Source of the DNA: an archaeon
GTDB lineage: Archaea; B1Sed10-29; JAJRYS01
Length of the DNA stretch: 64,000 nt
Assembly: GCA_024275665.1 (NCBI GenBank)
Contig: JAJRYS010000018.1
Coordinates: 5,442-69,441, forward strand
Reading direction: 5' to 3'
In this document: piece by piece, positions 19,940-49,876 of the stretch
Position numbering within the stretch: the first letter of the stretch is position 1
How the letters are laid out: each line of letters opens with the position of its first letter
The notes under the pieces: generated by a model
Database searches by the model: none
What the model saw: the letters and a program-made list of their open reading frames with translations, nothing else
Told to the model about the DNA's origin: nothing
Position numbers and translations under genes: made by a program

Positions 19940-20526
19940 AATGAACAAAATAAGAATAAAAAAATTATCAAAAAAAAGAAGAGTACCTTCTTGAATTATT
20001 TCTAGGAGATGGGTATTTTTCAATAGATAAGAATAAGCATTACAAAACTTGTTTTTGTCTAAATCCAAAAAAAGACTTCTTGATAATGCTTAAAGTGGTA
20101 TTATTACTAAAAAAGATTGAGTTAAATTCTTATCTTATTAATAATAATGGATGTGTTGAGGTAAAAGTAAATTCAATACTATTTATGGATTATATGAAAG
20201 AAAGTTTGAAAAAATGGTGGGATGAACCGGAAAGTTATTTACTTGGAGTTATTAGTGGTCTTATTGATTCTGACGGAAATATTGGCAATGGTGAAATAGT
20301 AATAACAAATAAGAACAAAAGTATTTTAAAGAAAGTAAAAGAAATTATTAATAAGAAGAATATTCACACTAAGTTGTGGATAAAACAAAACAAAGGAAAA
20401 GAGGATAAGTGGAAGTTTAATATTTACAAATTGAGAATTGGAACTGCTTTAAAAAACCTTGATCATTGTTCTTTAAAGGTTAAGTTCTTGAATAGTGGGG
20501 ATTCCGCAGCGACTAACAGGCATTAA
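19940..20526 (+). CDS. LAGLIDADG homing endonuclease, double-motif, apparent frameshift in A8 run near 5' end
   Basis: ATG at 19940 gives MNKIRIKKLSKK then stop; the other frame, open from 19959, reads …EEYLLELFLGDGYFSIDKNKH… and continues into the listed ORF containing LGVISGLIDSDGNI: two LAGLIDADG motifs about 100 aa apart. Confidence 0.7.
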
Positions 20527-20647
20527 AAATGCTTGTTAGTTGTAAGGGTAGGGCAGCTTGGAGTGCCCGTCGGGCTCATATGCGTTCCGGTTCCAAAAGG
20601 AACGCGGAAACACCCGAAGGTCAGAGGTTCAAATCCTCTCCCCGCTA
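20508..20647 (+). tRNA. initiator tRNA-Met(CAT) with two putative introns (acceptor stem after pos 4, and 37/38)
   Basis: A1:U72, AGCG|…|GGG acceptor pairing with CCCCGCT, U8A9, D-stem GGGC/GCCC with A14 and G18G19, anticodon stem with three G:C (TCGGG/CCCGA), loop CTCATA, T-arm AGAGG-TTCAAAT-CCTCT, discriminator A. Confidence 0.6.
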
Positions 20648-20743
20648 TTTAACATAATTATAACTGCATTGTTAAGGGAAGATAGTAGAGAAAAAAACCA
20701 TAGGTATTTTAGTATTCTCTGCTGACAACTGTTTCTTGTCTTA

Positions 20744-21229
20744 TTATCTTCCAGAAATTTCATTTAATATTTTTTTCTTAACTTTTTTGTTAAGTTCATT
20801 AATATCAATTTTTTCAAAATCTTTCTTACTTAATTCTTTCCTTAGCTCTAAAATTACTTCATTTGTTGCATTTCTTATTATGCTTTTTATCTCTTTATCT
20901 ATCATTCTTTGATTATTTTGTTTTTTGATAGATTCAATTACACTCTCAATCTCCCATTCATATCTTTCTTTTAAGATATTACTTATTGTATCTTTTTCTA
21001 AATCTCTTATTCTTTTAATATTATTTTCTTCTAATCTTTTCCTCAGTTCTTCTGCCCTGCGTTGTGAGGGGGTCTTCTTAGGCTTGTTAATCTTTTTCAC
21101 TGCTTCTTCGTAAGCTTGCCTGCGTGGATCTGTTAATGGTAGTATTGCCCATTCCCTCTTAATTCCATTAGGTAATGGAGTAAGGCTTGTCTTTTTTTTC
21201 CTGTATTTTTTATGTGGTCTATACACCAT
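20744..21229 (-). CDS. hypothetical basic protein
   Basis: 161 aa K/R/E-rich ORF, no recognisable motif. Confidence 0.35.
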   Translation of the reverse strand: MVYRPHKKYRKKKTSLTPLPNGIKREWAILPLTDPRRQAYEEAVKKINKPKKTPSQRRAEELRKRLEENNIKRIRDLEKDTISNILKERYEWEIESVIESIKKQNNQRMIDKEIKSIIRNATNEVILELRKELSKKDFEKIDINELNKKVKKKILNEISGR

Positions 21230-21313: not shown

Positions 21314-21973
21314 TTATTCGCTTATTTTTTTGATGAATTCTTCTGCTTTTTTAATACTTGGCTGAAAAGGAAAAGAATTAAAAAATTCTTGCACTGAATT
21401 GGTTTCTGTTACCACTTCCAATACTTTCTCAATCAACTCTTTTTCATCATTACTGAGATCAGAATCATAGAGAATAATTCTAACATCATCTCTTAGTACA
21501 GGACTTGAATAAGAATAAATCAAATTAAGAAGATTTAAAGAAAAATTTTCTATGTTCTTATCTTTTATTATTCTGTAGAATATTGCCACAGCATCAAGAT
21601 TTACCTCAGGGAATTTTGGGAGATTAAACATTAAAACATCATCACTTAAGTGCAAAAAATTTACATGATATAATTTTTTCAACTTTCTTGGTTTTTTCTT
21701 ACCTACTTTTGAATAATAATAAGACAAAAGAGTTCTTGCTTTGTTCCAAAAATTGTCTTTTGGAGAATATTCAAGAATTATGTTCTTTTCAACAAGTTCT
21801 CTTAGCTCTTTTTTTTCCAAAAATTTTACAACCTGCTCGCTTGGGGTTTTTCCATAAAATCCTTTTACATTCATTTTTAGCATTTCAACTATTGACTTTG
21901 GAGTCCTAGGAGCTGGAAACCTGCAAAATTCAATTATTTTCTTCCTTACTTCTTCCTTATCATAATTAGTCAT
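21314..21973 (-). CDS. hypothetical protein
   Basis: 219 aa ORF, codon usage consistent with neighbours. Confidence 0.35.
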   Translation of the reverse strand: MTNYDKEEVRKKIIEFCRFPAPRTPKSIVEMLKMNVKGFYGKTPSEQVVKFLEKKELRELVEKNIILEYSPKDNFWNKARTLLSYYYSKVGKKKPRKLKKLYHVNFLHLSDDVLMFNLPKFPEVNLDAVAIFYRIIKDKNIENFSLNLLNLIYSYSSPVLRDDVRIILYDSDLSNDEKELIEKVLEVVTETNSVQEFFNSFPFQPSIKKAEEFIKKISE

Positions 21974-48357: not shown

Positions 48358-48527
48358 CGCCTCGGGCAGGATTTTCTCACCGTCCAGTTGGCTTTTTTCC
48401 GCTGTGAAGCGGAAACCAGGCCACTTCAGCTTCAGCTGAATGTGGTCTCAGCCAGCCGGATACGGATGTTCGAACCTGCGGTCTCACGGTTAACAGCCGT
48501 GCGCTTTAGCCACTAAGCTACCGAGGC
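48358..48527 (-). tRNA. tRNA-Asn(GTT) with about 100-nt intron in T-loop (59/60)
   Basis: Minus strand: GCCTCGG TA GCTT AGTGGCTA AAGC G CACGG CTGTTAA CCGTG AGAC CGCAGG TTCGAA [insert] T CCTGC CCGAGGC G. Confidence 0.6.
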
Positions 48528-48598: not shown

Positions 48599-49876
48599 TT
48601 AAGGATAGTATCTTTCAGGTGTTCTTGGGAATGGTATTGCGTCTTTTATAGAGTCAAGCTTGCAAATCCACTGGATCAAGCGCTCTACTCCCATTCCGAA
48701 TCCAGCGTGAGGCACTGCTCCGTACTTCCTGAGGTCGAAGTACCATTCGTAGTGTTTTGGATCTTCTCCTTTTTCAATGAGTGCTTTCTTCATTTCCTCG
48801 ATGTCAAGGTCTCTTTCACTCCCTCCTATTACTTCGAATCCCACTTCTGGGAGTAAGACGTCTAGGCATCTTGCTACTTCAGGGTCTTCAGGATCTCTTG
48901 GTTTGTAGAAAGCCATTGCTGATTTCGGGTAATGAGTTACTATTAACGGCTTGTCGTAGTGAGTCATTAATTGTTTTTCTTCCTTGGTTCTGAGGTCTTT
49001 CCCGAAAGGAACACTTATTCCATCTTTTTCAAGAATCTTCAAAGCTTCTCTGTAAGTGATTCTTGGAAAAGGAGGTTTTATTCTGAGCATTTCTTCAGGG
49101 TCTCTTCCCAGGAGTTTGAGTTCTTCAGGGTATTCTTCTGCAACGTATTCGCATACGTATGAGATTAGTTCTTCACTTGTCTTTGCAAGCTCGTCCAAGT
49201 CCATCCAAGCTGCTTCCATCTCAGCGTGCCAGTATTCTGTCAAGTGGCGTGCTGTTTTTGACTTCTCAGCTCTGAACGAAGGGTTTATAGTGTATATTCT
49301 TTCAAGAGCAGGGAGTAATGCTTCTGCGTAGAACTGCCATGTTTGTGACAATCTTAGTTTTTTCCCAAAGTAGTCTACTTCAAATAATTCCAAACCACTT
49401 TCAGAAGTCATGGTGATGAAAGGAGCGTGAGTCTCGTAGTATCCTTTTTTCTTGAAGTATTCCCTAATGGCCCAGAACACAGCGCTTCTAACCTTCCACA
49501 CTGCTGTCAGCTTTCTTGACCTGACTGCCAAGTGCCTTACGTCAAGAAGGAATTCTTCTGAATAGTCTTTCGTAATCGGGAATCTTTCAGCAAGTTGCAC
49601 TACTTCGTATTCTTCTACTCTTACTTCGTAGCCTCCTGGCGCTCTCTCATCTTTGACTACTTTTCCTTTTAGTTTGATGCTTGATTCTATGGTTGTTTTT
49701 TCTGCTTTTTCAAAGAAAGGAGAGTCTTTTTTCACAGTGCATTGGATTATGCCGCTTGAGTCTCGCAGGATTATGAAAACTACTTCTTTCGTGGCTCTGT
49801 GTCTGTAAACCCAGCCACGCAACCACACGCTTTCTCCTTCGTGTTCCGGCACTTCAGAAACTTTTATGAAATCCAT
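48599..49876 (-). CDS. asnS: asparaginyl-tRNA synthetase (class IIb)
   Basis: OB-fold N-terminus, motif 2 FRAE, RHLTEYWHAEME and SQTWQFYAEA fit AsnRS rather than AspRS, motif 3 GFGMGVERL. Confidence 0.7.
   Translation of the reverse strand: MDFIKVSEVPEHEGESVWLRGWVYRHRATKEVVFIILRDSSGIIQCTVKKDSPFFEKAEKTTIESSIKLKGKVVKDERAPGGYEVRVEEYEVVQLAERFPITKDYSEEFLLDVRHLAVRSRKLTAVWKVRSAVFWAIREYFKKKGYYETHAPFITMTSESGLELFEVDYFGKKLRLSQTWQFYAEALLPALERIYTINPSFRAEKSKTARHLTEYWHAEMEAAWMDLDELAKTSEELISYVCEYVAEEYPEELKLLGRDPEEMLRIKPPFPRITYREALKILEKDGISVPFGKDLRTKEEKQLMTHYDKPLIVTHYPKSAMAFYKPRDPEDPEVARCLDVLLPEVGFEVIGGSERDLDIEEMKKALIEKGEDPKHYEWYFDLRKYGAVPHAGFGMGVERLIQWICKLDSIKDAIPFPRTPERYYP

Follow-up and report, generated by a model that had tools for sequence, protein, structure and literature searches.

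We analysed a 64,000-nt stretch of the archaeal contig JAJRYS010000018.1 (hereafter the window), which carries an initiator tRNA-Met (tRNAi) gene interrupted twice, once at the canonical position 37/38 and once within the acceptor stem, between tRNA positions 4 and 5. The 4/5 intron probably belongs to a homing-endonuclease arrangement that several archaeal phyla carry at the 5' end of their tRNAi genes. A LAGLIDADG endonuclease gene adjoins the tRNA, and its presence changes what the intron most likely is: in our view the intron is likely to be part of, or the scar of, an endonuclease element targeting the tRNAi 5' end, in a host whose tRNAi is predicted to remain functional and to be spliced by the host tRNA-splicing endonuclease, EndA. 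[quoted passage not shown]

Exon structure and splice-site motifs of the initiator tRNA

The tRNAi gene consists of three exons; these and the other features described here lie on the forward strand unless stated otherwise. Exon 1 (20508-20511) supplies tRNA positions 1-4 (AGCG), as read from the sequence and as required by the cloverleaf and by ARAGORN. Exon 2 (20546-20580; opening GGGTAGGGC, closing CTCATA) supplies positions 5-37, that is, GGG, U8 A9, the D arm, the 5' strand of the anticodon stem and the loop CUCAUA. Exon 3 (20612-20647; opening ACCCGAAGG, closing CCCCGCTA) supplies positions 38-73 and ends with the discriminator A; the CCA is not encoded. The joined exons make 75 nt, and the minimum free energy (MFE) fold of this product is a perfect cloverleaf of -34.5 kcal/mol with A1:U72, G29-31:C39-41 and the anticodon CAU. 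The A1:U72 pair, three G:C pairs closing the anticodon stem and CAU are the marks of an archaeal initiator tRNA. Uninterrupted archaeal tRNAi genes that bear these marks are 97% identical to the window gene in exon 2. The canonical initiator fold claimed in the initial annotation is therefore seen in full in the spliced product. Furthermore, a second reading of 20300-20850 returned the same coordinates and sequences for all of the pieces described there, including AGCG (20508-20511) displaced 34 nt upstream with a 12-bp hairpin in between (20512-20545), and a 31-nt insert after position 37 (20581-20611) with the hairpin GCGTTCC/GGAACGC.

When the native DNA of the locus was submitted to ARAGORN, no tRNA was called. 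After removal of insert 1, the program reported tRNA-Met(cat) with a 31-nt anticodon-loop intron, which corresponds to insert 2, and after removal of both inserts it reported an intron-less tRNA-Met(cat). The match to the Rfam tRNA model was restricted to 20546-20642 (model positions 5-66), as expected if tRNA positions 1-4 are displaced. Taken together with the cloverleaf, the BHB motifs at both junctions and the covariation of the 4/5 motif in many archaea (see below), these results uphold the identification of an initiator tRNA-Met with two interruptions, one of them in the acceptor stem.

Both inserts lie at splice sites set by BHB geometry. EndA cuts after the second base of each bulge of such a motif. 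The 3-4-3 form, hBHBh', has two 3-nt bulges on opposite strands with 4 bp between them (PMC3239211). Intron 1 (20512-20545; 34 nt; hairpin ACTAACAGGCAT/ATGCTTGTTAGT) fits this form strictly, with the 5' strand of the motif at 20504-20509. The outer helix of 2 bp is CC (20504-20505) paired with GG (20547-20548), that is, leader CC with G6 G7, and the central helix is GCAG (20506-20509) paired with UUGU (20540-20543), 4/4 pairs. Its bulges read CG|A and AA|G, and 12 bp make up the inner helix. Since the central-helix GCAG is made of two leader bases plus A1 G2, the intron-1 BHB exists only in a precursor still carrying its leader. When the upstream 100 nt were shuffled, a strict BHB with the 3' splice site before G5 and with AGCG left as the exon appeared in 1 of 40,000 shuffles. 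This rarity, together with the recurrence of the motif in 27 other distinct sequences, excludes a chance origin of the intron-1 BHB. Intron 2 (20581-20611; 31 nt), which is the intron called by ARAGORN at 37/38, has a relaxed BHB. Its central helix CUCA/GGAA forms 2/4 pairs, the bulges UA|U and AC|A are placed correctly, the inner helix has 7 bp, and the 5-bp anticodon stem serves as the outer helix.

From these features the locus is very probably a functional tRNAi gene, with a transcript predicted to be spliced twice. It might instead be a decaying pseudogene in a genome that has a normal tRNAi elsewhere, given that the window covers 64 kb of the genome and that the endonuclease gene beside it has already suffered a frameshift. 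The tRNA is nevertheless intact and canonical at all 75 positions, the perfect BHB has been kept by compensatory changes across phyla, and no second tRNAi was found within the 64-kb window. We thus regard the pseudogene explanation as very unlikely.

Judged from its protein and gene sequences, the window organism is a DPANN archaeon. The window aCPSF1 is 71-74% identical to proteins labelled Micrarchaeota, which are its closest named relatives. Both genes flanking the tRNA are syntenic with those of L019, a metagenome-assembled genome labelled Micrarchaeota, and exon 3 is identical to that of L019.

Relatives of the 4/5 intron and the leader copy of the acceptor strand

Relatives were collected with a split-acceptor pattern in which YTRY was required on the central helix's 3' strand and the two pairing leader bases were left free. 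A scan of one genome per species identified nine genomes, and a more specific scan of metagenomes gave 19 further loci. Look-ups guided by the endonuclease added more, and the total came to 28 distinct 4/5-type genes, the window included, from DPANN, Hadarchaeales, Woesearchaeota-like and Thermoplasmatota-like archaea. A strict 4/5 BHB was present in 28/28, with 4/4 central pairs, bulges CG|A and NN|G, an inner helix of 2-12 bp and an outer helix of 2-7 bp. The 22 distinct BHB cores were aligned as hand-cut, gap-free segments of fixed length covering intron 1 only. In this alignment, 97.5% of the cells were paired, versus 15-40% when the same structure was slid by 1-3 columns. Both partners have changed in four BHB pairs (U:A to C:G, A:U to G:C, and the two inner pairs), and the outer helix covaries with the tRNA body (CCUAUC/GGUAGG versus CCCAUC/GGUGGG). 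AGCG...GGG is invariant across the relatives. In these genes, exon 2 shares 97-100% identity with uninterrupted tRNAi of Hadarchaeota (L040, L049), Woesearchaeota (L033, L066, L085), Thermoplasmatota (L034) and DPANN-like archaea (L027, L035). This identity to the uninterrupted tRNAi of the host lineage indicates that native tRNAi genes from several phyla carry the interruption.

A second copy of the acceptor 5' strand, which we call X, is present in the leader as AGTGGGG at 20494-20500. It is part of a leader segment, TTGAATAGTGGGGA (20488-20501), that is complementary to the 3' acceptor strand plus trailer, TCCCCGCTATTTAA (20639-20652). X alone forms seven pairs with the 3' acceptor strand, one of them U.G, and the MFE fold of the precursor pairs the two. 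The whole duplex (20488-20501/20639-20652) has 14 bp and -21.0 kcal/mol (z=-6.7 versus shuffles). All 28 genes have X, usually as AGCGGGG and at a distance of 14-30 nt upstream of A1, and in their precursor folds its pairing often runs on into the discriminator and trailer or into an encoded CCA. The median energy of the duplex between the leader and the 3' strand was -18.1 kcal/mol in interrupted genes (n=25) versus -8.35 in uninterrupted genes (n=52; Mann-Whitney p=3.7e-8), and z ranged from -3 to -7 against shuffled leaders in most interrupted genes. Within its first five positions, X varies by A to G and C to U, so that pairing with U72 and G70 is kept; the single exception is U at position 1 in L110. 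A TATA-like sequence, TTTAAAGG (20472-20479), lies 22 nt upstream of X and is predicted from the sequence to be a possible internal promoter of the tRNA transcript. Similar TATA-like strings occur 28-39 nt upstream of X in many relatives.

The initial annotation had held that a continuous 7-bp acceptor stem in an alternative fold would speak against the intron. The leader AGTGGGG does provide such a fold, as the seven pairs above show. The intron still stands, because X is 48 nt from U8 and no BHB is able to excise that stretch. We nevertheless considered whether X is the real 5' acceptor strand, in a continuous 7-bp stem with U3.G70, in which case a single 7/8 insert of 48 nt, reaching to U8, would be removed. 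The mature tRNAi would then begin AGUGGGGUA, whereas 4/5 splicing implies AGCGGGGUA. This arrangement agrees with the MFE fold of the precursor, with the normal distance of X from TATA-like boxes in relatives and with the existence of true 7/8 introns in two relatives (L115 and L120). It lacks a BHB: central pairs number 2/4 in the window and 1-2/4 in all 28 relatives, with no flanking helices, whereas the 4/5 BHB has 4/4 pairs everywhere. Furthermore, X often departs from a perfect copy (AGCGGTT, GGCGGTG, GGTGGGA), in contrast to the invariant AGCG...GGG. The exon model of X, 48 nt and U8 was rejected with a BHB in 0/28 genes, and we assign it hardly any probability. With the 4/5 exon structure retained, X could bind the orphan 3' strand for as long as the BHB ties up A1-G2 and G6-G7, and be displaced after ligation. 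We offer this folding role tentatively, with more doubt than confidence. X may also be a duplication footprint, which is compatible with the folding role.

Copies of tRNA ends were observed in other leaders as well. Uninterrupted tRNAi genes of Desulfurococcales/Acidilobales type (L002, L008, L012, L016, L025, L030, L042, L045, L056, L060, L090) have GGCGGGG 8-10 nt upstream of A1, and in several of them, e.g. L008, L012, L025 and L045, the trailer has a matching CCCCGCC. In L090 the first 13 nt are present as a tandem copy (GGCGGGGTAGGGCAGCGGGGTAGGGCAG). The pattern resembles a processing stem between leader and trailer, or an old duplication. In five Hadarchaeales-like loci (L092, L098, L101, L107, L108), an upstream open reading frame (ORF) for a 427-443-aa membrane protein reads through X and exon 1 into the intron (tail ...TTVAGPATTAASG); the leaders of the same loci also repeat the tRNA 3' end as GCTAC(C/T), and this repeat can form a hairpin with the leader copy GGTAGC.

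Other deviations in tRNAi were also noted during the survey. Introns in the T arm or T loop occur in many tRNAi genes of Woesearchaeota, Nanoarchaeota, Hadarchaeota and relatives (L015, L023, L033, L040, L049, L085, L092, L100, L106, L108), independently of the acceptor-stem intron. In L082, which belongs to the same group of loci, the intron is in the variable region. L110, L112 and L119 have C33 (loop CCCAUAA) in place of the near-universal U33.

The LAGLIDADG gene and its linkage to interrupted tRNAi genes

A two-motif, I-DmoI-like LAGLIDADG gene with a frameshift occupies 19941-20526, as identified by Pfam, by its motifs and by homologues. Its frame runs through the tRNA leader and exon 1 into intron 1, where it stops at TAA (20524-20526); the stop-to-stop ORF is 19960-20526. 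The match to Pfam LAGLIDADG_3 (PF14528) scored 35 bits versus a cutoff of 22.5. The window motifs are LFLGDGY and GLIDSDG, and the catalytic GDG and G.ID.(D/E)G are invariant in an alignment of the window with 10 homologues (11 sequences). For one homologue, P0003, the best match in the Protein Data Bank was to I-DmoI chains (E=2e-5). The reading frame in the window is not intact: the ATG at 19941 is out of frame, and an in-frame start is absent. The frame breaks at an A8 homopolymer (19970-19977) that has one A too many. Indeed, removal of one A restored a 194-aa ORF with a corrected N-terminus that aligns with the homologues. The break could mean that the gene is truly a pseudogene, or it could stem from an error in assembly or from slippage. 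In the public annotation the protein (P0001, 146 aa) begins at an internal TTG and is without the first LAGLIDADG motif. The orthologues in L015, L106 and L116 are intact. In P0002, P0003 and P0006 (L110, L112, L116), the annotated ORF runs on through the intron and the tRNA, giving C-terminal tails ...RRAHNP or ...RWAHNP; these tails produce spurious short tblastn matches on other tRNAi loci. A Pfam search of neighbouring ORFs of the window (20744-21229, 21314-21973 and others) revealed nothing tied to the element.

The same layout was found on all 16 distinct contigs examined that carry a close homologue of the endonuclease (the window and 15 other loci), with the gene directly upstream of tRNAi and in the same orientation. 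Six of these other loci, all with an interrupted tRNAi, were retrieved by the tRNA pattern (L007, L015, L100, L102, L106, L109), and six came from a protein search (L110, L112, L113, L115, L116, L117). The remaining three (L118, L119, L120) are sampled matches of a profile search that returned more than 110 endonuclease clusters at E<1e-44, under names including Aenigmarchaeota, Pacearchaeota and Woesearchaeota. In every one of these loci, a BHB intron interrupts the 5' part of the tRNAi, mostly at 4/5. The intron is at 7/8 in L115 and L120 (central GCGG/CCGU, 4/4), and at 12/13 in L113 (GUAG/CUAU, 4/4) and L119 (3/4). Among loci found by tRNA sequence alone, the gene was upstream of 0/53 uninterrupted versus 6/19 interrupted tRNAi genes (Fisher p=1.7e-4). 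The end of the ORF falls in the leader or at A1-G2; in L007, L015, L102, L106, L109 and L119 its stop UAG is formed by U(-1)A1G2. Two of the 15 other loci have three tRNAi introns with the endonuclease gene upstream: L119 (Aenigmatarchaeota, tRNA at about 1750-1990), at 12/13, at 37/38 and in the T loop, and L120, at 7/8, in the anticodon stem and at 37/38.

We then compared alleles with and without the ORF. L099, which has no ORF, and L106, which has one, are 91% identical through the leader, intron and tRNA. L106 differs by a 549-bp insertion that holds the ORF and is bounded by a 9-bp direct repeat, ATAGCGGGG, one copy of which includes X. In addition, a tRNA 5'-end fragment ending at position 10-12 lies just before the ORF start in L015 and L106 (AGCGGGGTAG, following a TATA-like box in both), L118 (GCGGGGTAG), L119 (AGCGGGGTGGAG) and L120 (AGCAGGTAGAG); in the window, no such fragment was found before the ORF. 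The L118 fragment has A9 and differs from the resident tRNA, GGGTGGGG, which has G9. This difference is a hint that element and fragment came together from another host. The window enzyme is 40-42% identical to those beside Hadarchaeales-like and Thermoplasmatota-like tRNAs versus 30-36% to those beside DPANN-like tRNAs, which suggests transfer between lineages. At least four lineages have this site occupied in their native tRNAi. Hence, the locus shows both a presence/absence polymorphism (L099/L106) and use of a homologous site in unrelated hosts, as expected of a mobile element.

A different arrangement, in which the ORF would lie within one large BHB intron, was rejected for lack of support as the splice route. 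The duplex energies between the region upstream of the ORF and the leader or intron were no better than shuffles in most loci, the far-upstream tRNA fragment is without an inner helix, and the fragment is absent from the window.

These findings bear on a plainer explanation, in which the acceptor intron is an ordinary non-canonical tRNA intron produced by a process of 'intron transposition' and the LAGLIDADG gene is an unrelated, free-standing selfish gene favouring the intergenic spot. Non-canonical and multiple introns are common in DPANN and Thermoproteales, the window tRNA-Asn has a 59/60 intron with no endonuclease, and the ORF is absent from 13/19 interrupted tRNAi alleles. Such independence is difficult to reconcile with the position of all 15 other sampled close homologues, directly upstream and in the orientation of a tRNAi with a 5'-region intron, or with the lack of the gene at any of the 53 uninterrupted tRNAi genes. 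Nor does it account for an ORF that ends in the leader or at A1-G2 and an insertion bounded by repeats of the tRNA 5' strand. We consider this explanation unlikely.

LAGLIDADG maturases and LAGLIDADG regulators such as WhiA exist, and the protein might have been domesticated as a maturase-like or DNA/RNA-binding factor that aids the expression or processing of tRNAi. Faint LAGLIDADG_WhiA matches in some homologues, the probable co-transcription of the ORF and tRNA, and the UAG stop overlapping A1-G2 in six loci point in that direction. The ORF is dispensable, however, being absent or broken in most alleles, including the window. Both catalytic acidic residues are invariant, and the presence/absence polymorphism together with the occupation of native tRNAi of unrelated phyla is the behaviour of a selfish element. 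Domestication is accordingly improbable, to about the same degree as the ordinary-intron explanation.

Several points weigh against the endonuclease-element interpretation that we prefer. The relatives are not independent, so the counts overstate the number of separate events. The intron clearly persists without the enzyme, because 13/19 interrupted alleles are without the ORF and the window copy is frameshifted. A more distant homologue, P0113 (L121), is without an adjacent tRNAi. The central helix of intron 2 is weak (2/4) and would need a tolerant EndA, and no EndA gene was identified in the 64-kb window. Splicing, the order of processing and the use of the promoter are predictions. X may be no more than a duplication footprint, and then no folding aid, as suggested by the repeat copy flanking the L106 ORF and by the distance of X from TATA-like boxes, which is that of a native 5' end. 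Finally, the idea of immunity, described below, rests on position (ORF junction at 10-12; introns at 4/5, 7/8 and 12/13). Homing elements usually pass through a phase of decay, which intron-bearing alleles without the ORF and a frameshifted copy fit.

Proposed mechanism and relation to known systems

In the processing route that we propose, the primary transcript would start before the ORF or at the TATA-like box (20472). This precursor would be unable to form the acceptor stem; X would occupy the 3' strand and leave the BHB arm exposed. Leader bases -2/-1 and A1-G2 would pair with the 3' end of the intron as the central helix, and the leader CC would pair with G6-G7. EndA would cut at 20511/20512, 20545/20546, 20580/20581 and 20611/20612, and an RNA ligase would join the exons. 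The new contiguous AGCGGGG strand would displace X from the 3' strand, and RNase P would then remove the leader, cutting before 20508. In this route splicing has to precede RNase P, which would otherwise abolish the BHB along with the leader.

In the simplest model for the DNA, the enzyme would recognise and cut uninterrupted DNA at roughly tRNAi positions 1-20. A BHB intron at 4/5, 7/8 or 12/13 would split the recognition site in the carrier allele, so that the DNA would escape cutting and splicing would repair the RNA. The ORF junction (10-12) and the introns at 4/5, 7/8 and 12/13 all lie inside a stretch the size of a LAGLIDADG site. The leader decoy strand, AGCG, the intron and GGG would together make a self-contained BHB cassette. 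An I-DmoI-like family may home into archaeal tRNAi 5' ends and cross phyla with this cassette, which would shield the allele and let the host rebuild its acceptor stem; we hold both this fuller scenario and the target-and-immunity model with slightly less than even confidence.

Archaeal tRNA genes with multiple or non-canonical BHB introns have been reported from Thermoproteales, ARMAN/Micrarchaeota and Hadesarchaea (PMC4090602, PMC4033280, PMC3239211, PMC5829648), and heavy tRNA disruption has been described in DPANN and Hadesarchaea (PMC5829648). A 3/4 acceptor-stem intron is recorded in Thermoproteales (PMC4090602), in agreement with the statement of the initial annotation that acceptor-stem introns are known from this group. 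The window gene resembles these introns in its protein-spliced type, its 3-4-3 BHB, the presence of several introns in one gene and positions outside 37/38. It differs in the 4/5 position within an initiator tRNA, the leader-built 5' half of the BHB, the acceptor copy in the leader and the linked endonuclease gene; no description of any of these was found in the literature searched. A twice-interrupted tRNAi by itself is of a known kind; the endonuclease linkage and the leader-built BHB with its decoy strand set the locus apart. No report of a homing endonuclease tied to an archaeal tRNA intron or to tRNAi was found in the literature, from which subscription journals were mostly outside coverage, so that the novelty is unproven.

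LAGLIDADG genes are found inside archaeal rRNA BHB introns, as with I-DmoI in the Desulfurococcus 23S rRNA and the 16S introns of Thermoproteales (PMC4496867, PMC6125680). The present arrangement shares with such endonucleases (I-DmoI) a monomeric two-motif enzyme, the same splicing system and a highly conserved RNA gene as the host. It is unlike them in that the host gene is a tRNA and that the ORF is outside the spliced intron, in the leader; in relatives, it is placed between a tRNA 5'-end fragment and a complete intron-bearing copy. In collaborative homing, shown experimentally for F-CphI and the psbA intron, a free-standing endonuclease gene stands beside a gene whose ORF-less intron protects it (PMC6083498). 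Here too a free-standing endonuclease gene adjoins an intron-bearing gene, and the enzyme and intron could spread together. That system is of phage origin, with a group I intron, an Endo VII-type enzyme and a protein-coding gene, and its cleavage and immunity are experimental, whereas cleavage and immunity at tRNAi are inferred. Integrative elements in tRNA genes offer a further likeness, a partial tRNA duplicate (1-10/12) on one side of the ORF and a complete gene rebuilt on the other. Unlike those elements, the present one has no integrase, its duplicate comes from the 5' and not the 3' part, and the rebuilt part holds an intron.

The origin and movement of non-canonical archaeal tRNA introns are an open question, for which the locus and its relatives offer a concrete, testable candidate. 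It is defined by an endonuclease family (>110 clusters), a universally conserved putative target (the first ~20 bp of tRNAi) and natural alleles with and without the gene. The endonuclease arrangement suggests how odd tRNA introns spread between archaea. If the interpretation is true, archaeal tRNA BHB introns would have their first mechanism of mobility at the DNA level, and collaborative homing would have a counterpart in archaea. Should the leader decoy strand prove functional, it would represent a novel means by which a precursor with a split acceptor stem stays foldable. The split acceptor arrangement also explains why tRNA finders miss tRNAi in many DPANN, Hadarchaeales and related genomes (cf. 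the missing tRNAs in PMC5829648); gene callers translate straight through the tRNA at such loci.

Two minor observations were also made in the window. An Rfam match to rli38, a Listeria sRNA, at 20404-20545 was below threshold (24 bits versus a cutoff of 49) and is almost certainly spurious, being driven by the AT-rich leader and the intron-1 hairpin. A second interrupted tRNA gene missed by ARAGORN, tRNA-Asn(GTT), lies on the reverse strand at 48358-48527, directly downstream of an Asn/Asp-type tRNA synthetase gene (48599-49876). Its 97-nt intron (48372-48468) is in the T loop at 59/60 and has a relaxed, hBH-like motif, in which the central helix UUCG/AGAA forms 3/4 pairs, the outer helix is the T stem and there is no adjoining inner helix.

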